In this document: positions 11,745-28,249 of the stretch, piece after piece | Position numbering within the stretch: the first letter of the stretch is position 1 | Layout of the letters: every line of letters starts with the position of its first letter | IMG/VR virus record: IMGVR_UViG_3300025534_000004 | Coordinates: 1 to 64,000 of that record | Length of the DNA: 64,000 nt | From: a virus | Direction: 5' to 3' (one strand) | Notes under the pieces: generated by a model | Database searches by the model: none | Told to the model about the DNA's origin: nothing | The model's input: only the letters and a program-made list of their open reading frames with translations | Translations under genes and position numbers: made by a program

Positions 11745-12320
11745 ATGAACCGAGCCGAGCGCCGCCGCGCCGCCAAGGAACAACAGAAGCAGCAGCGAAA
11801 AACGACGCTCTACGCCGAGATGCCCCTCGATGAGGTGCCCCCTCACCTGCACAGATTCATCCCGTGGACGCCCTTCGAGCGGGCGGAGCTTCCGCCGACA
11901 GCCGAGGCCGAGGTGCGGGAAATCGCGGAGAAGTTCGGCCTGTCTGAGGAAGCGGCCCGGCGCCAGATGGAGCGGGTGCTGCGCAATGAGGTCTGGATCA
12001 ATTCCCGCTACCAAGTGAACATCGACCGGAGCCCGGAGATCGGTGAGGGCTGGCCGAAAATGATCCACCTCAGCATCAAGCGCCGAGACAAGGAGGTCAT
12101 CCATGACTGGCGTGACCTGCAACGCATCAAAAATGAACTGATCGGCCCCGAGCACGAAGCGGTGGAACTCTACCCGGCGGAATCGCGCCTCGTTGACGCC
12201 GCCAACCAGTATCATTTGTGGGTGCTGGCCGAGCCGGGGGTGCGCTTCCCTTTCGGCTGGACGGAGCGTGGGAATCGAACCCACGGCACGCGGATTAAAA
12301 GTCCGCCGTTCTTCCTCTGA
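11745..12320 (+). CDS. Conserved phage hypothetical protein
   Basis: HLSIKR.D....HDWRDLQRIKNELIGPE.EAVELYPAESRLVD.ANQYHLW block; 3' end runs antisense into a tRNA. Confidence 0.8.
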   Translation: MNRAERRRAAKEQQKQQRKTTLYAEMPLDEVPPHLHRFIPWTPFERAELPPTAEAEVREIAEKFGLSEEAARRQMERVLRNEVWINSRYQVNIDRSPEIGEGWPKMIHLSIKRRDKEVIHDWRDLQRIKNELIGPEHEAVELYPAESRLVDAANQYHLWVLAEPGVRFPFGWTERGNRTHGTRIKSPPFFL

Positions 12321-12331
12321 ACTACCGGCCC
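12258..12331 (-). pseudogene. tRNA-Lys(UUU) with unpaired acceptor stem
   Basis: D arm, anticodon arm (GCGGA-CTTTTAA-TCCGC) and T arm intact; 5' GGGCCGG cannot pair with 3' GCTCCGT. Confidence 0.75.
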
Positions 12332-12355
12332 ACGCAAAGCCTGTATGGATGGGAT

Positions 12356-12431
12356 TGGAGGGCCGGGTGGGGTTCGAACCCACGACCTTGGGATTAAGAG
12401 TCCCCTGCTCAACCAACTGAGCTTCCGGCCC
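12356..12431 (-). tRNA. tRNA-Lys(CUU)
   Basis: Full cloverleaf, GGGCCGG/CCGGCCC acceptor stem, loop CTCTTAA, encoded CCA. Confidence 0.95.
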
Positions 12432-14890: not shown

Positions 14891-14965
14891 CTGGACGTAG
14901 CGCAGCGGTAGCGTGCTCGCCTCGGATGCGAGAGGTCGCGGGTTCGATCCCCGCCGTCCAGACCA
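14891..14965 (+). tRNA. tRNA-Pro(CGG)
   Basis: Cloverleaf, C1-G72, loop CTCGGAT, CCA. Confidence 0.9.
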
Positions 14966-14968
14966 TTC

Positions 14969-15044
14969 GCCTCATTCGTCTAGTGGTTCAGGACACTGCG
15001 CTTTCAATGCGGAAACACCGGTTCGAATCCGGTATGGGGCACCA
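14969..15044 (+). tRNA. tRNA-Glu(UUC)
   Basis: Cloverleaf, loop CTTTCAA, short variable loop, CCA. Confidence 0.9.
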
Positions 15045-15061
15045 AGTTCATTGCCGCTTAA

Positions 15062-15133
15062 CAGAGCGTGGCCCAGCGGTAGGGCGCCTCCTCGGGAAGG
15101 AGGAAGTCGGTGGTTCGATCCCACCCGCTCTGA
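15062..15133 (+). tRNA. tRNA-Pro(GGG)
   Basis: Cloverleaf, loop TCGGGAA, no encoded CCA, abuts the next tRNA. Confidence 0.85.
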
Positions 15134-15208
15134 CGGGGTGTGGCCGAGTGGCAAGGCGCCTGCTTTGGGAGCAGGAGATCGAAGGTTCGATTCCTTCCAC
15201 CCCGACCA
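15134..15208 (+). tRNA. tRNA-Pro(UGG)
   Basis: Cloverleaf, loop TTTGGGA, CCA. Confidence 0.95.
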
Positions 15209-15299
15209 TATCTCCATTGTGTCGGGAGAACGACCACACTGCGCACGGCTAAATATCGCCATCCATGCTCAACGAACCAGTAATTTGGAGCGTCGCGCC

Positions 15300-18200
15300 G
15301 TGATCCTCGTCAAATCCATTGCATTCCGTGGTGCCATCAACGTCAAGTACAGGATTGCGGACACCTCCCCGCCTGTTTGGGTGACGCCCGAGGGCCTGCT
15401 CGGCACGGCGCACAGCGGTGATACCGTCGGCTTCCAACTCGTCGCCGACAGCGCGAACCTCATCACCGACTACCGGGTGATCTCCGGCGAGCTTCCGGCC
15501 TACCTCACCCTTACATCGACCGGACTGCTCACCGGGACCGTGCCGGAGGAGATTGAGAGCGAGACCACCTTCGAGATCACGGTGCGCGTCACCGACAACT
15601 ATGGGCAGTATGCCGACCGCAGCTTCTCGGTCGTGGTGGCTCCGCCGTTGCCGCTGGCACCCATCTGGCAAACGCCGTCTAACCTCGGCAGCGTGCCCGC
15701 GCTCACGCCGATCAACATTGGCCTGCTGGCCGAAGCCGATCCGAGCGCCACAATCGTGTCCTATACCATCGCACCCTATTCCGGCGCTCTCCCGGTCGGA
15801 CTGACGCTCGACCCGGTCACGGGCGCCCTGTCCGGCACTCCGAATTATGTCGGCACCAATACCACCTACTTCTTCGTGCTGCGGGTCACCGATTCGAATG
15901 GCCGCTTCACGGACCGCTCCTTCCGCCTCGCGGTGACCTATGTCAACACACCGCCGAAGTTCATCACGCCAACCGGGCTGATCACCGATCTCGAAGGCGG
16001 GGAAAGCGCCAACGTCCTCCTGAACGCCACGGACGACAAGGGCATCAAGCACTGGCGCGTCCTCACCGGAGCACTGCCGGACGGACTGACCCTGTCGAAT
16101 GCTGGGTTCATCATGGGTACCGTCGCTTCGGTAACGGAAACCACCGTTTACGACTTCACCGTGGAGATCGAGGACGCCGAAGGTCTGACCGCGCAGCGGG
16201 ACTTCTCGATCAAGGTATGGGCGCCGAACCAGCCTCCGGTGTTTCTGACGCCGGAGGGCAGCCTCGGGACCTTCGATGAAGAATCGAAGATCAATATCAG
16301 CCTGTCCGTGGCGGATGATCGCAACCAAATCGCCAAAGTCGAGGTGGTCGGTGGGGATTTCCCTGCCGAATTGAACATGAGACCGGAAGGCACCATCGTT
16401 GGCACGCTCCCAGCGGTCGAGGAGGACACCACATACACCTTCACGCTTCGCGTTACCGACCTCGGCAACCGCGAGAACAAGAACAAGCTCTACAGTGACC
16501 GGACCTTCTCCCTGACGGTCCGCAATGTCGAGAACATGGCTCCGGTCATCACGACTCCGGCCGGAAGCCTAGGAACATTTGCGGAAAACTCCACCATCCT
16601 TGTGCATCTGGAAGCGACGGATGACCGCGATGGCACCTATGTCACATGGAGCATCGCGCCGGGATCGAGCCTGCCGGACGGGCTCACGCTCACCAGCGAC
16701 GGCACCCTGAAAGGTACCGCGCCGGAGGTCATGGAGGACACGACCTACGAGTTCACCCTGCGGGTGTCCGACCATGGTGATGGCATCAACGATCCTCTGT
16801 TCACGGATCGCACCTTCTCCATCACGGTGACGGACGTGAACACTCCACCGGTTCTGGAAGGCCCGAGCAACCTTGGGAAATACTGGACCGGGGACGTTGT
16901 CGAGGTGCAGCTTTCGGCGCAGGATGACAAGGCCATCACCGAATGGGAGGTCATCGGCGGGGAACTCCCGCCGGGCTTCGTCCTGACCACCAGCGGCGTG
17001 ATCAGCGGCACGGTGCCGCCACTGGACGAGATCACCGACTACAGCTTCGAAATCCGCGTGAGCGACGCCGAGGGGCTGACGGCATCGGCCACCTATACGA
17101 TGCGCCTGATGTCGGAGGAAGCCACACTCACCAACGCAGCGCCCGTCATCACCACTCCCGCCGGTTCGCTGGGAATCTTCGACGAGCGTACCGCCATCTC
17201 GTACACTTTGGCTGCCACTGACGATTATGATGAGCCGGTCTGGGAGGTCACGGGCGGTGACCTGCCGGAGGGCCTCAATCTGTCCCCCGAGGGCGTGATT
17301 TCCGGCACGACGCCGGACGTGATGGAGGACACGACCTATGAGTTCACCGTCCGGGCAAGCGATTCGCGCGGCCTCTACACGGAGCGCAGCTTCTCGATGA
17401 TCGTAGCGGATGTGAATACGCCGCCGGAAATCACCACCACCGAACTGCCGCCGGTCGTCGAAGGCAATTCCGTGTCGTTCCAGCTTGAAGGCACCGACGA
17501 CAAGGCCATCACGGAGTGGAGCATCGTCTCCGGCGCCCTGCCGAGTGGCTTGTCCATCTCCGCCTCCGGCCTGATCTCGGGTACGGCGCCAGAGGTCGAT
17601 GAGGATACGAGCTACGCCTTCACGGTGCAAGCCAGCGATGCGGGCGGCCTGACCGCAACCATGGAACTGAGCCTGACCGTGCGGAGCCGCGAGCCGTACT
17701 TCGTCACGCCGTCGGGTCTGCTCGGGACCTTTGAGAAGCGCGAGGAAATCGCCGTCGCCGTCGAGGCAAGGGATGATGTCGGGATCACGCTTTGGGAAGC
17801 CGTCGATCTGCCCGACTTCCTCACCCTACAGCCGAACGGTGTCCTTACCGGCATCGCTCCGGATGTTCTCACGGATACGGTCTACCCGATTACCCTGTAC
17901 ATTGAGGACGCGGACGGCCACTCGGCGACGCGTGAGTTCAGCATCGCAATCAAGTATGTGAACACGCCGCCCGTTATCACCTCGTCTGCCGACCTCGGTG
18001 CCTATGTGCAGAACGCTCCGGTCAGCATTCAACTGGAAGGCACGGACGATATCGGCATCGACGAATGGGCCTTGGAGGACAGTGACCTGCCGGAGGGCCT
18101 CAGCCTGACCCCGACCGGGCTCATCAGCGGCACCACGCCCAGCGTAACCGAGGATACGCGTTTCTATTTCACGGTACGCGCGACCGACACCGGAGGGCTC

Positions 18201-19226
18201 GCCAGCTATAAGCTGCTCTCGATCAGGATCACCGTCGAGGAGCCGCAATCCGGTGGTGAGACGCCCGATCCGACACCGGCCTTCATCACCCCGGCCGGTC
18301 TGCTCGCTACCATCGACGAAAGGGTCCCATATGCCACTGCGCTCAAGGCCAGTGACGATGTCGGCATCACGCAGTGGAGCATTGTGGACGGGGCGCTTCC
18401 GGACGGGATGACCTTGGATGCACGCACTGGCGTGATTTCCGGGACCCCGGCCGATGTCACCGAGGACCAGACCTCCACCTTCACCGTCAAGATCGAGGAC
18501 GCCGATGGTCTGTCGGCGACGCGCACATTCAGTCTTGCGGTGCGCAAGACCGAGCCGTTCTGGGCACCCGGCACGCCATTCGATCTTGGGACCCTGCAAG
18601 CGAATATGCCGATGACGCCGCTCACGCTCACGGCGCTCAATGGCATCGACCTTACCCATTCGGTGGTGGCTGGAGAACTGCCGCCGGGTCTCACCCTGTC
18701 CCCCAACGGCGTCCTGTCCGGCACTCCGGGCTTTGGAGGCGGAAGGGTCACGCGGTACTTCTTCGTCATCGAGGCGCTGTCGGCCGACGGCCTTTCCGCC
18801 GAGCGCAGCTTCTCGATCTCCATTTCCGACAATCCGCCGGTCTGGGTGACCAAGGAGGGTCTTGTGGGCACGGTCGATGAAGGGGAGGAAATCAACATCC
18901 CGCTCATTGCGACCGACCCGGACAACAACATCAGCCAGTATATCGTCGTGAGCGGGAAACTGCCGAGCGGCGTGGCCGTCAACGAGTACTCCGGCGTTCT
19001 CACCGGTACCGTGCCGACCGACCTCTCGCAATCGACCACCTACAGCTTCACGGTGCGCGTGATCGACGAGGATGGCGGCTATGCCGACCGGACCTTCCGG
19101 CTTGCCGTCAATCACTATGGGAATGTCGTCTACTGGCGGACCACGAGCAGCCAACTGCCGGTGGGCAAGACGGGTGCCGAATATGGGTACACTCTGGATG
19201 CCTATTCGGTGAAGGTCATTAGGTGA
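15300..19226 (+). CDS. Ig/cadherin-like (He_PIG-type) repeat virion fibre protein, 13 full repeats plus a C-terminal partial repeat
   Basis: ~95-aa repeats PP.W.TP.G.LG...LP.GL.L...G.ISGT.P...Y.FTVR.TD..G.Y.DR.FSI.V; GGAG RBS before GTG 15300; TAAATA at 15250. Confidence 0.9.
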   Translation: MILVKSIAFRGAINVKYRIADTSPPVWVTPEGLLGTAHSGDTVGFQLVADSANLITDYRVISGELPAYLTLTSTGLLTGTVPEEIESETTFEITVRVTDNYGQYADRSFSVVVAPPLPLAPIWQTPSNLGSVPALTPINIGLLAEADPSATIVSYTIAPYSGALPVGLTLDPVTGALSGTPNYVGTNTTYFFVLRVTDSNGRFTDRSFRLAVTYVNTPPKFITPTGLITDLEGGESANVLLNATDDKGIKHWRVLTGALPDGLTLSNAGFIMGTVASVTETTVYDFTVEIEDAEGLTAQRDFSIKVWAPNQPPVFLTPEGSLGTFDEESKINISLSVADDRNQIAKVEVVGGDFPAELNMRPEGTIVGTLPAVEEDTTYTFTLRVTDLGNRENKNKLYSDRTFSLTVRNVENMAPVITTPAGSLGTFAENSTILVHLEATDDRDGTYVTWSIAPGSSLPDGLTLTSDGTLKGTAPEVMEDTTYEFTLRVSDHGDGINDPLFTDRTFSITVTDVNTPPVLEGPSNLGKYWTGDVVEVQLSAQDDKAITEWEVIGGELPPGFVLTTSGVISGTVPPLDEITDYSFEIRVSDAEGLTASATYTMRLMSEEATLTNAAPVITTPAGSLGIFDERTAISYTLAATDDYDEPVWEVTGGDLPEGLNLSPEGVISGTTPDVMEDTTYEFTVRASDSRGLYTERSFSMIVADVNTPPEITTTELPPVVEGNSVSFQLEGTDDKAITEWSIVSGALPSGLSISASGLISGTAPEVDEDTSYAFTVQASDAGGLTATMELSLTVRSREPYFVTPSGLLGTFEKREEIAVAVEARDDVGITLWEAVDLPDFLTLQPNGVLTGIAPDVLTDTVYPITLYIEDADGHSATREFSIAIKYVNTPPVITSSADLGAYVQNAPVSIQLEGTDDIGIDEWALEDSDLPEGLSLTPTGLISGTTPSVTEDTRFYFTVRATDTGGLASYKLLSIRITVEEPQSGGETPDPTPAFITPAGLLATIDERVPYATALKASDDVGITQWSIVDGALPDGMTLDARTGVISGTPADVTEDQTSTFTVKIEDADGLSATRTFSLAVRKTEPFWAPGTPFDLGTLQANMPMTPLTLTALNGIDLTHSVVAGELPPGLTLSPNGVLSGTPGFGGGRVTRYFFVIEALSADGLSAERSFSISISDNPPVWVTKEGLVGTVDEGEEINIPLIATDPDNNISQYIVVSGKLPSGVAVNEYSGVLTGTVPTDLSQSTTYSFTVRVIDEDGGYADRTFRLAVNHYGNVVYWRTTSSQLPVGKTGAEYGYTLDAYSVKVIR

Positions 19227-19269
19227 GCTTGAACGCGCAGAATGCCATTTCAACAGAAAGCCATTTGAG

Positions 19270-20310
19270 ATGCCCAGCTACATAGTGCGCATCCGCGCAA
19301 CCGATGAAACCGGTGCCTACGCGGACCGGAACTTCACCTTCAATGTGACCAGTTCGGTGGCGAACCAGATCATGGCCGTTGACGGTATCGGCGGCTATGC
19401 CTCGCCGGACGGCGTCGCATGGACCAAGCGAATCACCGTCGGTGGGCGCCGCGTCACGCATGGAAACGGCCTCTGGATCATTTCCGGTGCGGTGACTGGT
19501 CGGACCGCGAACCAATTCCACTGGTCCAACGACGCCGTGTCATGGGACATGCGGACCATCCCCGCCCTTCTGGTGGACGGCACGCCCAGCGATCCGTTCT
19601 GGGCCTATCTGCATGATCAGTGGTGGGTCCACGGGGCGGTTGCCGCCAACCAGACGGGCTGGATCACCTCCATCAACCCGCAGTCCAAGATATGGACCGC
19701 CAAGGCGGTGACGGGCGGCCTCGGGCTGCGTGCGACGACCCTTGCGAGCGACGGCTCGAATATCATCACCGCGTATGAAGGCAGTACCACCCTCCATGTC
19801 TCGACGGACGGCGGAATGACCTTCGAGCCGCTGCTGGGAAGCCCGGTGCTGCCCGAAGCAAGCGGCGCCACCGTGACCTATCTGAACGGGACGTGGCTCT
19901 GTGTCACGCCGACCGAAGTTCACATCTCCCGCGACCTGCTCACATGGACTATCGGTGCCCTCCCCACCCTTCCGGCCAACACGGTTCTCACGCAGATCAC
20001 CTACGGGAATGGACGCATGGTCCTGCCCCTGTCGAAGGTCAGTGCCGAGGTCGGAACCGTCGGCGCCTGCCTCACCAGCGACAATGGCGGCTATAGCTGG
20101 TCATTGCGGAGCTTCGAGCCGTTCATCGAGGACAGCGTTTCGACCTGCCGGACCAGCGTCGCCTTCGCGTGCGGCTGGTGGCTGCTCGCCGGGTCCTCCG
20201 CAACCAGCCCCGGCCTGCGTGTCTCCCGCAATGCCATCGACTGGTCGGTGGCCGCAGTTGAGGGCAGCGGTGGCTCCTTCAACTCCATCGCACGCACCTC
20301 GATGGGGTGA
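19270..20310 (+). CDS. Putative receptor-binding beta-propeller (Asp-box repeats) with N-terminal Ig fragment
   Basis: S.DG..W repeats; begins MPSYIVRIRATDETGAYADRNFTFNV. Confidence 0.8.
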   Translation: MPSYIVRIRATDETGAYADRNFTFNVTSSVANQIMAVDGIGGYASPDGVAWTKRITVGGRRVTHGNGLWIISGAVTGRTANQFHWSNDAVSWDMRTIPALLVDGTPSDPFWAYLHDQWWVHGAVAANQTGWITSINPQSKIWTAKAVTGGLGLRATTLASDGSNIITAYEGSTTLHVSTDGGMTFEPLLGSPVLPEASGATVTYLNGTWLCVTPTEVHISRDLLTWTIGALPTLPANTVLTQITYGNGRMVLPLSKVSAEVGTVGACLTSDNGGYSWSLRSFEPFIEDSVSTCRTSVAFACGWWLLAGSSATSPGLRVSRNAIDWSVAAVEGSGGSFNSIARTSMG

Positions 20311-20355
20311 CGGTCACACAGCCTGATAAATGCACTTTGAGAAAGCCATCAGACG

Positions 20356-21423
20356 ATGACCATCAAATTCTCTATCGTTCAGGGTTCGCTGCCGCCCGGC
20401 CTGACATTGGCCGAGAACGGGCGGATCAGCGGCGTTATCCCGGACATCGAAATGCCCGAATGGCAGACCCCGGAGGGGCGCCTGCCCGATCTGGTGAGCG
20501 ACGAACCCGTCAATTTCACCTTCGTCGCCAGCGCGGCGGCGTCCCGCACCATCGTGGCCTACCAGACGGTCGGCGTCGGTCAGGCCGCCTATGACGGGCT
20601 GCCGACCGGGGTCATCCTCGATACCGAAACCGGGGTCCTGTCAGGCAGCGCGCGCCGTGATCCGACGGAAGGCGACTTCGCCTCCGACGAGGCGCCGGTC
20701 TGGGAAACCCCGGCCGGAGAGCTTCCTGAGACCGATGAGCACGCCACCTACAGCTTCACCTTCGCGGCCAGCGCGGTGCGCGGCACCAGCATCCGCTACA
20801 TCGTCCTACCGGGGCGCGGGAGCATCCCGTTCGGTCTGGTCCTCGATTCCGCGACCGGCGTGTTGTCCGGCGTCTGTGGCGAGGAATTCGGGCCGCCCGA
20901 CCCCCGCCCCGGCGCCGTGACATGGACGACCCTTCCCGGCGTGCTCGGCACCGTCAATGAGTTCGCTACCTTCACCGCGACGGTGGCGGCCACCAGCGAG
21001 CATCCGATCCGCTATGTGCTTCTCCCCGAGTATGGCGGCCTTCCTTTCGGCCTGACGCTGGATTCCGTGACCGGGACCATCAGCGGCACGCTCGCCGAAC
21101 TGACCGACCACACGGAACCTTATGTCCGGCCAGCGAGCCCGCCAGTATGGGTAACCGCCTCGGCATTGGGGGCGGTGAACAGCGGCGCCGGGGTCAACAT
21201 TTTCCTCTCCGCAACCGCCATCGAGGGACGGACCATGCGCCGCTACTATCTGGCGGACGGTTCGCATCTCCCGCATGGCCTGATCCTCAACAGCGACACG
21301 GGCATCATCGCCGGTACCGCGCAGACCGTGTCCGAGGACACCAATTTCGCCTTCTCGGTCTATGCCGAGGATTCGGCGGGTGCTCGGGCACGGCGAGATT
21401 TCACCCTGACCATCAAGATTTAA
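20356..21423 (+). CDS. Ig-repeat adaptor made mostly of incomplete repeats
   Basis: LP.GL.LD..TG.LSG repeats lacking the terminal strand pair except in the last repeat. Confidence 0.8.
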   Translation: MTIKFSIVQGSLPPGLTLAENGRISGVIPDIEMPEWQTPEGRLPDLVSDEPVNFTFVASAAASRTIVAYQTVGVGQAAYDGLPTGVILDTETGVLSGSARRDPTEGDFASDEAPVWETPAGELPETDEHATYSFTFAASAVRGTSIRYIVLPGRGSIPFGLVLDSATGVLSGVCGEEFGPPDPRPGAVTWTTLPGVLGTVNEFATFTATVAATSEHPIRYVLLPEYGGLPFGLTLDSVTGTISGTLAELTDHTEPYVRPASPPVWVTASALGAVNSGAGVNIFLSATAIEGRTMRRYYLADGSHLPHGLILNSDTGIIAGTAQTVSEDTNFAFSVYAEDSAGARARRDFTLTIKI

Positions 21424-21436
21424 GAAGGCTTTTCCA

Positions 21437-22555
21437 ATGGGTACCTATAATTTCCGAATTCGCGCCTTGGACAACACGGGCGCTTTCGCCGACCGCAACT
21501 TCTCGATCAATGTCCGCAACACCGCCGTGGATCGAATCGTGCTGGTGGACGCCAAGCACGCCTATTCCTCGCCGGACGGCGAAAACTGGTCACTGCGGTC
21601 GAACGCAGGAGGCACCTACGTCACCTACGGCAATGGCATGTGGATTGTTGCTGGGCCATCAACGGGCACAGGACGAACCACTGGGAGCTACATGTATTCC
21701 TACGATGCCGTGAGCTGGTATCAGCAGACTTTTCCCCAATTCAATAGCTCCGGCAACAATAGCAAAGTGGTGGCACCGATCTTCTGCAATGGGCGCTGGT
21801 TCGTCGCATACAACTATGGCTCCGGTACCAACGTCGCCATTTTTTCTACAACGACACCGGAAGATGGGTCCTCTTGGCAGAAAGCCACAACCGATTTGCC
21901 ATCCGGAGCACAGATGACGAACATGATTCATGATGGGCAACGCTTTATTGCCGTCGCGAGCAACACCTCATCGACAACAACTCCGGTGTTTTATATTTCG
22001 ACTAATGGAACAAGCTGGGCACAGGGCACCACTCCGATCAATTCGAACGGTACATTCAATATCACCGACTTGGTGTACGTGAATGGGACATATATACTGA
22101 GCGAATCGTCCAATGCTAGGGTTTGGACCTCACGCGACCTATCAAACTGGGTCCTATCCATACTACCGGCGATTCCAACGTCAAATTTCTTGCACAGGTT
22201 GTATTACGGTAACGGCCGCATTGTTGCTCCCCTCCAAAAAAAAAGCAACGGGGATATCGGGAATTTTCTGACGAGCGATGACGGCGGCATCACATGGGTC
22301 CTGCGCAGCCTCGACAATAAGTTTTCAAGGGCCACGTCTGTTTCAGGATACATGTCGGCGGTTTTCACGCTCGGTGGCTGGATCATGTGTTCCAGTGCCA
22401 TCACCGAGAGTACGACCGAAGGGCGGTATCTCCGGACCTCGACCGACGGCATCACCTTCGAGTCCAGCGCCCCGGATTCCCTGATCGCCGCCGCGACCGC
22501 TGGCGGAAACACCACTGGCGCATTCAACTGGATCGCCGCCATGCCGCTGACCTGA
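21437..22555 (+). CDS. Second Asp-box beta-propeller with N-terminal Ig fragment (paralogue of 19270-20310)
   Basis: Begins MGTYNFRIRALDNTGAFADRNFSINV; SPDGENW, SDDGGITW; AT-richer core. Confidence 0.8.
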   Translation: MGTYNFRIRALDNTGAFADRNFSINVRNTAVDRIVLVDAKHAYSSPDGENWSLRSNAGGTYVTYGNGMWIVAGPSTGTGRTTGSYMYSYDAVSWYQQTFPQFNSSGNNSKVVAPIFCNGRWFVAYNYGSGTNVAIFSTTTPEDGSSWQKATTDLPSGAQMTNMIHDGQRFIAVASNTSSTTTPVFYISTNGTSWAQGTTPINSNGTFNITDLVYVNGTYILSESSNARVWTSRDLSNWVLSILPAIPTSNFLHRLYYGNGRIVAPLQKKSNGDIGNFLTSDDGGITWVLRSLDNKFSRATSVSGYMSAVFTLGGWIMCSSAITESTTEGRYLRTSTDGITFESSAPDSLIAAATAGGNTTGAFNWIAAMPLT

Positions 22556-22680: not shown

Positions 22681-22875
22681 ATGACCAAACGCGATGCCCC
22701 CGAGCGCCCCGCCAGCCGTCGGTGCAAGATCACCGAGGCGGATATCCTCGCGGACAGGGAATTGGTCGAGAAGATCAGGCGGACGGCGAATATCGTCGTC
22801 GGCGAGCCGATGACCTCGGAACAATTTCACGCTTGGCTGGACGAGATGGCTCGGAAGGCCCGCAAGGGCGCCTGA
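22681..22875 (+). CDS. Small protein, possible antitoxin
   Basis: 64 aa directly upstream of the YafQ-like gene; AGAGGA RBS. Confidence 0.55.
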   Translation: MTKRDAPERPASRRCKITEADILADRELVEKIRRTANIVVGEPMTSEQFHAWLDEMARKARKGA

Positions 22876-22895
22876 GCCCGCAGGATGATTTCAGA

Positions 22896-23369
22896 ATGAC
22901 CATCAATGACGCGATCCGACTGCTAGAGGCCAAGCCGAACAAGCGATCTCCCTCCGCTGCCGCGCAGAATGCCCGAAATTCGAATGGCGAGGGCTGGCGC
23001 ATCACCCAAGGCCCGCTGTTCGCGGCCAGCCTGCTCGACAAGCTGGCGGTATTCCCCGACCTCGCCGAGAAGCTGAAAAAGTTCGAGGAGGTGAAGAAGC
23101 ACAATCCTCTGAGCAGCAAGTACGGCAAGCACGACCGTCCAATGACGGCCGATCTGGTCGGTCTATGGCACTGCCACTTGCGCGACGATGCGGTTCTGAT
23201 CTACCGGCTCAAGGACCGGGCCGTCCATCTGATCTACATCGCCTCCCATGCCGAGCTTGAGGGCAAGCGCCTCAAGCAGACCACGACCCGTCTCCGCAAT
23301 GCCGGGGAGCTACCGGAGGGCACCACCGGCCTCGCTGAGAGCATCATCCGCGCCCTCGGTTTTGCCTGA
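22896..23369 (+). CDS. YafQ/RelE-family mRNA interferase-like protein
   Basis: HDRPMTADLVGLWHCHLRDDAVLIY......HL..IASHAEL matches the YafQ pattern. Confidence 0.8.
   Translation: MTINDAIRLLEAKPNKRSPSAAAQNARNSNGEGWRITQGPLFAASLLDKLAVFPDLAEKLKKFEEVKKHNPLSSKYGKHDRPMTADLVGLWHCHLRDDAVLIYRLKDRAVHLIYIASHAELEGKRLKQTTTRLRNAGELPEGTTGLAESIIRALGFA

Positions 23370-26027: not shown

Positions 26028-28249
<2,222 letters not shown>

Follow-up and report, generated by a model that had tools for sequence, protein, structure and literature searches.

Complementary pieces of one Ig-like domain, split over stalk, hub and head genes of giant phages, suggest a branched virion fibre

Four genes share the parts of one domain

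We analysed a 64,000-nucleotide stretch of viral DNA (positions 1 to 64,000 of IMG/VR virus record IMGVR_UViG_3300025534_000004, called the window below), in which four consecutive genes, A to D, encode pieces of the same immunoglobulin (Ig)-like domain, He_PIG. A preliminary description of the locus had proposed that the four open reading frames (ORFs) divide a three-part repeat among themselves, with part (i) ending gene A, part (ii) beginning gene C and part (iii) beginning both B and D. The four ORFs were borne out, and the profile coordinates of the individual pieces agree with the proposed three-way division (Table 1). We refer to A as the stalk, to C as the hub and to B and D as heads; the part (iii) segment is called the plug, and a repeat that lacks it a socket.

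Table 1. Features of the locus, with positions counted from the first nucleotide of the window (aa, amino acids; nt, nucleotides; profile, positions in the He_PIG profile described in the text)
Feature	Position	Strand	Description
Gene A, stalk, 1308 aa	15300..19226	+	GTG start; N-terminal leader of about 22 aa, 13 complete He_PIG Ig-like domains, part (i) tail
A tail, aa 1273-1308	19116..19223	+	strands A-B, profile about 8-32, then stop codon; relatives end in the same place
Gene B, head 1, 346 aa	19270..20310	+	residues 1-28 F-G hairpin plug, then beta-propeller
B plug	19270..19353	+	part (iii) at the extreme N-terminus; residues 4-28 correspond to profile 72-96
Gene C, hub, 355 aa	20356..21423	+	part (ii) head, three truncated repeats (i and ii, without F-G), one complete domain
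C head, aa 1-32	20356..20451	+	part (ii) only; residues 4-32 correspond to profile 39-67; continues the domain begun by the A tail
C truncated repeat 1, aa 33-99	20452..20652	+	profile 6-63
C truncated repeat 2, aa 110-175	20683..20880	+	profile 3-64
C truncated repeat 3, aa 189-254	20920..21117	+	profile 8-71
C complete terminal He_PIG domain, aa 260-354	21133..21417	+	profile 4-95
Gene D, head 2, 372 aa	21437..22555	+	residues 1-28 plug, then propeller of DUF6242_C/BNR type
D plug	21437..21520	+	part (iii) at the extreme N-terminus; residues 3-28 correspond to profile 71-96
AGAAAGCCAT 10-mer, copy 1	19255..19264	+	5 nt 5' of the B start codon
AGAAAGCCAT 10-mer, copy 2	20340..20349	+	6 nt 5' of the C start codon
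12-codon upstream ORF	15266..15303	+	ATG at 15266; TGA overlaps the GTG start of gene A (GTGA)
TAAATA box	15250-15255		upstream of gene A
tRNA array Pro-CGG, Glu-UUC, Pro-GGG, Pro-UGG	14891-15208		immediately 5' of gene A
tRNA genes Lys-UUU, Lys-CUU	12258-12431		
Large terminase	26028-27869	-	56% identity to TerL of phages Atu_ph07 and Phosso
ORF downstream of D	22722-23369		weak PHROG match to RelE-like toxin (E 1.2e-6)

The Pfam model of He_PIG (PF05345) matches 13 stretches of gene A (E 1.9e-131, 429 bits) and four of gene C (E 1.4e-33, 115.6 bits), at a gathering cut-off of 24. The span of a whole domain, about 96 positions, is reached by the 13 repeats of A and by the last repeat of C. 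It is incomplete in the A tail, the C head, the three middle repeats of C and the N-termini of B and D. To place these fragments we used a hidden Markov model profile of 101 positions built from the 13 intact repeats of gene A. Positions of about 70-96, which hold strands F and G, are absent from the sockets and present in the plug. The last 36 residues of A by themselves reach 3.8 bits (profile 9-31), being too short to score. When the pieces were joined in silico, purely for profile scoring, the A tail, the C head and the D plug gave one uninterrupted domain covering positions 8-95 at 62 bits; the complete domain of C itself scores 72.6 bits with the same profile. Likewise, the truncated repeats of C score 27-38 bits alone and 48-64 bits with a plug appended, a gain of about 21-30 bits each, and appending a shuffled plug to them gave zero gain. 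The pieces from A, C and B/D are confirmed to be complementary, without gap or overlap.

The split recurs in large phages

The window is part of a 147.7 kb contig with a GC content of 62.7%, which derives from a large phage, and an exact copy of the gene D protein is also present on a 484.6 kb contig. By its large terminase (Table 1) the phage is related to Agrobacterium phage Atu_ph07 and Sinorhizobium phage Phosso, whose genomes measure 490 kb and 469 kb. Elsewhere in the 147.7 kb contig there are no other He_PIG pieces and no further plug-first genes. A DNA search of a phage collection gave no matches, nor did the gene D protein as a single query against viral contigs, and NCBIfam and PHROGs contributed no informative family.

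Related loci were obtained by protein look-ups (L004 and L006, for example) and by a scan of viral contigs (L009-L020). The three cut points are conserved in about 22 loci at 27-40% identity, on phage contigs of 119-544 kb; these include L001, Atu_ph07, two Phosso loci, L004, L006 and L009-L020. Among cultured phages, the triad of stalk, hub and head genes occurs once in Atu_ph07 (gp239-241) and twice in Phosso (genes 679-681 and 350-353), and the hub of the window is 31-32% identical to their hubs. The metagenomic triads lie nearly all on contigs of 119-490 kb, and six loci have two of them in tandem. The metagenomic scaffold L001 (544 kb) encodes a three-domain stalk ending in part (i), a hub consisting of a part (ii) start, three truncated repeats and one full repeat, and a plug-first head that is 35% identical to gene D. 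Part (ii) comes first in all hubs whose start was checked, every hub adjoins one or two heads, and the scores of the hub family (at least 247 bits) stand well clear of those of generic He_PIG proteins (at most 147 bits). In Atu_ph07 gp240, annotated as an 'EF hand/PKD domain protein', an upstream ATG that overlaps the gp239 stop restores the part (ii) head (L002 7898-8060; MF403008, near 187408), and the GenBank start was probably called too far downstream.

The preliminary description had regarded A as a stalk. Its part (i) tail is indeed conserved, but its great length is specific to this phage, since A has 13 domains versus one to three in most relatives; the stalks of Atu_ph07 and Phosso have one. 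The A-type leader and tail are common to seven other A-type proteins and to the A-type ORFs of L009-L020. The leader, of about 20 residues (window 15300-15365) and of the type M-G-I-R-F-x-G-R-Y-x-P-x-G-R-L-x-F, is also present at L001, L003, L004, L006 and L009-L018, and is a candidate virion-docking element. In some relatives an extra domain of 100-300 amino acids is inserted between the leader and the Ig domain. We also considered whether large, divergently transcribed He_PIG proteins of relatives lack part (i) and accept the A leader; this was rejected, as they start with a normal part (i).

The number of sockets per hub varies, as does the number of adjoining head genes. Four sockets are found with one head gene in 17 hubs, from most relatives, and with two head genes in the single hub of this window. 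Single hubs have five sockets with one head gene (L016), six with two (Phosso locus 2, L022 6533-8104), eight with two (L020, 4995-7001) and eleven with two (L015, 2829-6980). This tally disagrees with the earlier expectation that four sockets should predict more heads: the complete Atu_ph07 genome has one plug-first head per four-socket hub, and 17 of the 18 hubs of this size adjoin one head gene. It is therefore more likely that each hub carries several copies of the same head. In L015, stalk and hub form one ORF of 1384 amino acids with five full domains, eleven truncated repeats and one full domain; because the A|C junction is unsplit there, the A tail and the C head together correspond to one more truncated repeat.

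Virion proteins and the reality of the split

The virion proteins of Atu_ph07 were identified by electrospray ionization tandem mass spectrometry (Attai et al. 2018, Supplementary Table S5; PMC6102473), and the table lists all three homologues: gp239 (15.8 kDa, 3 unique peptides, coverage 40.6%, peak in band 11), gp240 (36.3 kDa, 2 unique peptides, coverage 13.9%, peak in band 5) and gp241 (43.7 kDa, 6 unique peptides, coverage 18.2%, peak in band 6). According to this table, all three are thus virion-associated. The same paper describes thin 'whiskers' on Atu_ph07 virions, mostly on the capsid (PMC6102473).

These data bear on two rival explanations. The first is that the split is an assembly error, or that a single repeat gene was rearranged and its fragments are decaying. 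Repeat arrays readily suffer misassembly and deletion, and a continuous ORF in relatives had been named beforehand as a sign of such an artefact. However, the architecture is present in about 22 independent loci, two complete cultured-phage genomes included, with intact ORFs, conserved starts and a conserved plug, and the Atu_ph07 proteins were detected in virions (PMC6102473), so that we give this explanation next to no credence. Since the cut points and the plug are conserved, hubs and heads occur together and the homologues are found in virions, the split is neither an assembly artefact nor a disguised single ORF; it is real and selected.

The second explanation is that frameshifting, read-through or hopping fuses the products into a single long chain in which the domains are normal. 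The stop codon of A and the start codon of C overlap in relatives or are 2-11 nucleotides apart (ATGA in Atu_ph07), and in the window B and C share a reading frame, with two TGA codons between them. Nevertheless, no domain is restored when adjacent genes are joined in their order, because A plus B would lack part (ii) and the last domain of C is complete before D begins. The frame relations vary between loci, the L001 junction shows no slippery site, and in this phage B intervenes between A and C. In addition, after treatment with SDS (sodium dodecyl sulphate) and boiling, gp239, gp240 and gp241 each peak in a gel band of their own, as far as Table S5 records (PMC6102473). We consider translational joining very improbable; the near-touching stop and start codons in relatives suggest, from their spacing, coupled translation of stalk and hub.

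The heads are propellers with a conserved N-terminal plug

We searched 1.84 billion representative proteins with a profile made from B, D and the head of L001. Among the best 150 matches, about 58 proteins of 243-426 amino acids start without exception with the hairpin at residue 1-4; each of them represents a cluster at 50% identity. A plug and propeller internal to one longer protein was found in none of 96 long hits. In an alignment of 55 heads, ten plug positions are at least 90% conserved, with a mean column identity of 24% overall. The mean frequency of the top residue is 0.78 in the plug versus 0.33 in the propeller, which makes the plug the best conserved part of the head. Head B is the more divergent of the two in the window, with V in place of the near-invariant F6. 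In complete genomes, plug-first heads occur solely beside hubs, one in Atu_ph07 and three in Phosso. A paralogous propeller without a plug, which matches from position 34, lies about 7 kb from a Phosso triad (L003 403-1581; Phosso record 448539-449717).

The heads had first been described as divergent Asp-box propellers, a family that they match weakly. D matches BNR_2 (PF13088) weakly, at 33.0 bits with a cut-off of 31.4, and the BNR repeat match of B is below threshold (23.1 versus 27). Profile matches to sialidases in the PDB are weak (E about 1e-5) and partial; the top PDB profile match is a DUF6242 chain, 9his (E 1.1e-7). DUF6242_C (PF25852) is the precomputed Pfam label on protein P0004, and the structural neighbours of D in the ESM Atlas carry PF25852, with template-modelling (TM) scores of 0.63-0.68. 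On these models, the heads look like 7-bladed propellers of DUF6242_C type, a propeller that is also present on Sipho_Gp37-type phage tail proteins. As the ESM Atlas neighbours of D align from residues 25-32, where the structural matches begin, the plug is an appendage and not a propeller blade.

Structure predictions

The hub was folded alone with AlphaFold2 and 22 homologues, giving a mean predicted local distance difference test score (pLDDT) of 82. In this model, pLDDT reaches 91-96 in the complete last domain, which is built of seven strands. Each truncated repeat shows about three long strands, and many blocks score 75-92; the linkers between repeats, rich in proline and acidic residues, are below 50. 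No replacement in cis for the missing F-G pair is seen in the hub-alone model. By structural matching, the hub resembles tandem arrays of cadherin and Ig domains. A PDB sequence search with one A domain gave no matches.

Head B and hub C were also folded as a single chain of 717 amino acids with AlphaFold2, by reading through the intervening TGA codons as tryptophan and using an alignment of 15 rows. The mean pLDDT was 70 and the predicted TM score (pTM) 0.46, with the propeller at pLDDT 70-89. The hairpin strands were predicted at residues 3-12 and 17-27 (pLDDT about 61-66), followed by residues 27-31 at below 50. A wide structural search with this model recovered the propeller only, at residues 28-348, with 7-bladed propellers as best matches; the best match (VIA-align) had a Z of 22.6 and a root-mean-square deviation of 3.4 A over 298 aligned residues, with a model range of 28-344.

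A proposed branched fibre by mutual fold completion

The comparative data on cut points, genes and plugs strongly suggest a branched fibre whose subunits complete one another's fold. We consider it likely that the products of A, C and B/D belong to a single virion fibre, in a giant phage akin to Atu_ph07, and are joined by complementation of the He_PIG fold, with the docking itself and its stoichiometry being what we infer. In the hub C, Ig-like repeats without their final strands, F and G, would follow one another in an array, and each head (B or D) would be a propeller with an N-terminal F-G hairpin on a flexible linker. This hairpin would insert into a truncated hub repeat and complete the sandwich in trans. 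The tail of stalk A (strands A-B) and the start of the hub (middle strands) would form one further socket, also closed by a head hairpin, so that the hairpin at the A-C joint would tie stalk, hub and head together. Because the G strand exits towards the next domain in Ig-like arrays, a docked propeller would lie where two repeats meet and point out to the side, and such propellers would give the fibre a bottle-brush form. In this phage, about four lateral heads, some of them B and some D, would sit on a hub borne by a 13-domain stalk; most relatives would carry the same head four times over. The propellers probably either bind a glycan of the host surface or cut it. Receptor binding by the propellers (the adhesin role of the preliminary description), the ligand and the site of the fibre on the virion are likewise what we infer.

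Several points weigh against this proposal. Most genomes have one head gene for four sockets, and both the stoichiometry and the filling of all sockets are guesses. We identified no capsid or tail anchor. The B-C fold is uninformative on docking, since the plug has a pLDDT of 61-66, the pTM is 0.46 and contacts were not reported. Finally, the truncated repeats model fairly well without a partner (pLDDT 75-92), so that they may fold autonomously.

These points raise an alternative in which the truncated repeats are a self-sufficient short variant of He_PIG. The head hairpin would then dock another virion protein or act as a chaperone or assembly tag, and the shared boundaries would merely reflect recombination at sub-domain junctions. 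The local confidence with which lone truncated repeats are modelled would fit this alternative, as would the excess of sockets over head genes, which have no obvious match; the hub and B-C models carry no contact information that would speak either way. However, the hairpin is a canonical F-G pair, and these are the very positions missing from the truncated repeats. Plugged heads occur solely beside hubs, also in complete genomes, and a hairpin that has one hydrophobic face and is so much better conserved than the rest of the head needs a partner to bury it. Furthermore, the A tail and the C head cannot each fold independently. We thus regard a self-sufficient short variant as unlikely and prefer docking by fold completion. 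Beyond this phage, it appears reasonably probable that a natural split Ig-like domain serves as a general connector of giant phages, in which scaffolds of 4-11 sockets capture heads via a 26-residue hairpin and one joint is a domain made of three polypeptides.

Initiation regions and flanking sequence

B is placed between stalk and hub in this phage, and the 10-mer AGAAAGCCAT precedes the ATG of both B and C. It has two exact copies and no others in the 64-kb window; allowing at most one mismatch, there are 8 matches versus 2.0 expected. The 10-mer may be an initiation region common to both genes, or it may have been left behind when B was inserted. Upstream of gene A, the overlap between the stop of the short upstream ORF and the start of A hints, by its arrangement, at coupled or regulated initiation. 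A long 'ORF' at 14913-19226 was rejected as an artefact of reading through the tRNA array. The further features of the surroundings, among them the ORF downstream of D, are given in Table 1.

Relation to known systems

Donor-strand complementation, in which an incomplete Ig-like fold is completed by the N-terminal extension of another subunit, is known from chaperone-usher pili, type V pili and TasA fibres. The arrangement proposed here is alike in that the extension of one subunit would complete the incomplete fold of another, but it differs from chaperone-usher pili in several ways. Two strands, the F-G hairpin, would be donated instead of a single G strand. The donor would be a globular head and not the next identical subunit, so that the product would be branched and not a linear polymer. 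One socket would be formed from two chains, giving a three-chain domain once the head is docked. Assembly would also take place in the cytoplasm of the infected cell; Pfam and PHROG scans, which covered the four genes and six neighbouring ORFs and these alone, found no chaperone or usher families. Thus, completion of an incomplete Ig-like fold by a neighbour's N-terminal extension is already known, and the novelty lies in the two-strand donor, the three-chain domain, the tandem array of 4-11 sockets, the branched product and the phage setting. If docking is true, donor-strand complementation would extend from secreted bacterial pili to phage particles assembled in the cytoplasm, and the principle itself would gain a two-strand donor and a three-chain domain.

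Phages also build branched receptor-binding complexes by other means, with T4 gp10-like adaptors in CBA120 and G7C and with anchor-branch systems in Klebsiella jumbo phages. As in our proposal, several heads are held on one scaffold via short conserved N-terminal modules and can be exchanged or added. Those complexes use complete trimeric adaptor domains, whereas the joint here would be a split monomeric Ig-like domain; the same scans found no PHROG or Pfam match to gp10-like or branch adaptors. Docking of this kind would explain how variable numbers of swappable binding heads are carried on one giant-phage scaffold, and would represent a new build of branched, multivalent phage fibres.

Tandem He_PIG arrays of bacterial and phage surface proteins belong to the same family, and gene A, with its 13 domains, is a classic example. 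The Pfam model describes the whole domain (96 positions, with matches reaching 2-95), whereas here the family is cut in three over three proteins. The closest counterparts are the direct homologues gp239, gp240 and gp241 of Atu_ph07 and the Phosso genes, which have the same split and are annotated just as hypothetical or as 'EF hand/PKD domain'; Atu_ph07 has one head gene versus two in the phage of the window. The searched parts of the Atu_ph07 paper use the same names for its proteins and do not mention the split (PMC6102473), and full-text searches on the mechanism or the domain families gave no description of it. For annotation, this means that dozens of 'hypothetical' clusters gain an architecture, that domain-based annotation misses the pieces and that at least one GenBank start looks wrong. 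Since Atu_ph07 and Phosso are cultured, the split-domain idea is directly testable.

Finally, engineered systems such as SpyTag/SpyCatcher, derived from CnaB2, and split fibronectin-type domains also rely on a short beta peptide that fills in a truncated Ig-like domain in trans. The connector described here differs from the SpyTag type in being natural, presumably non-covalent and hairpin-based, and in being arrayed 4-11 times per scaffold. If the proposal is true, it would be a natural, modular and non-covalent counterpart of SpyTag-type connectors, and a compact tag and socket pair in a tandem array could become a tool for protein assembly.

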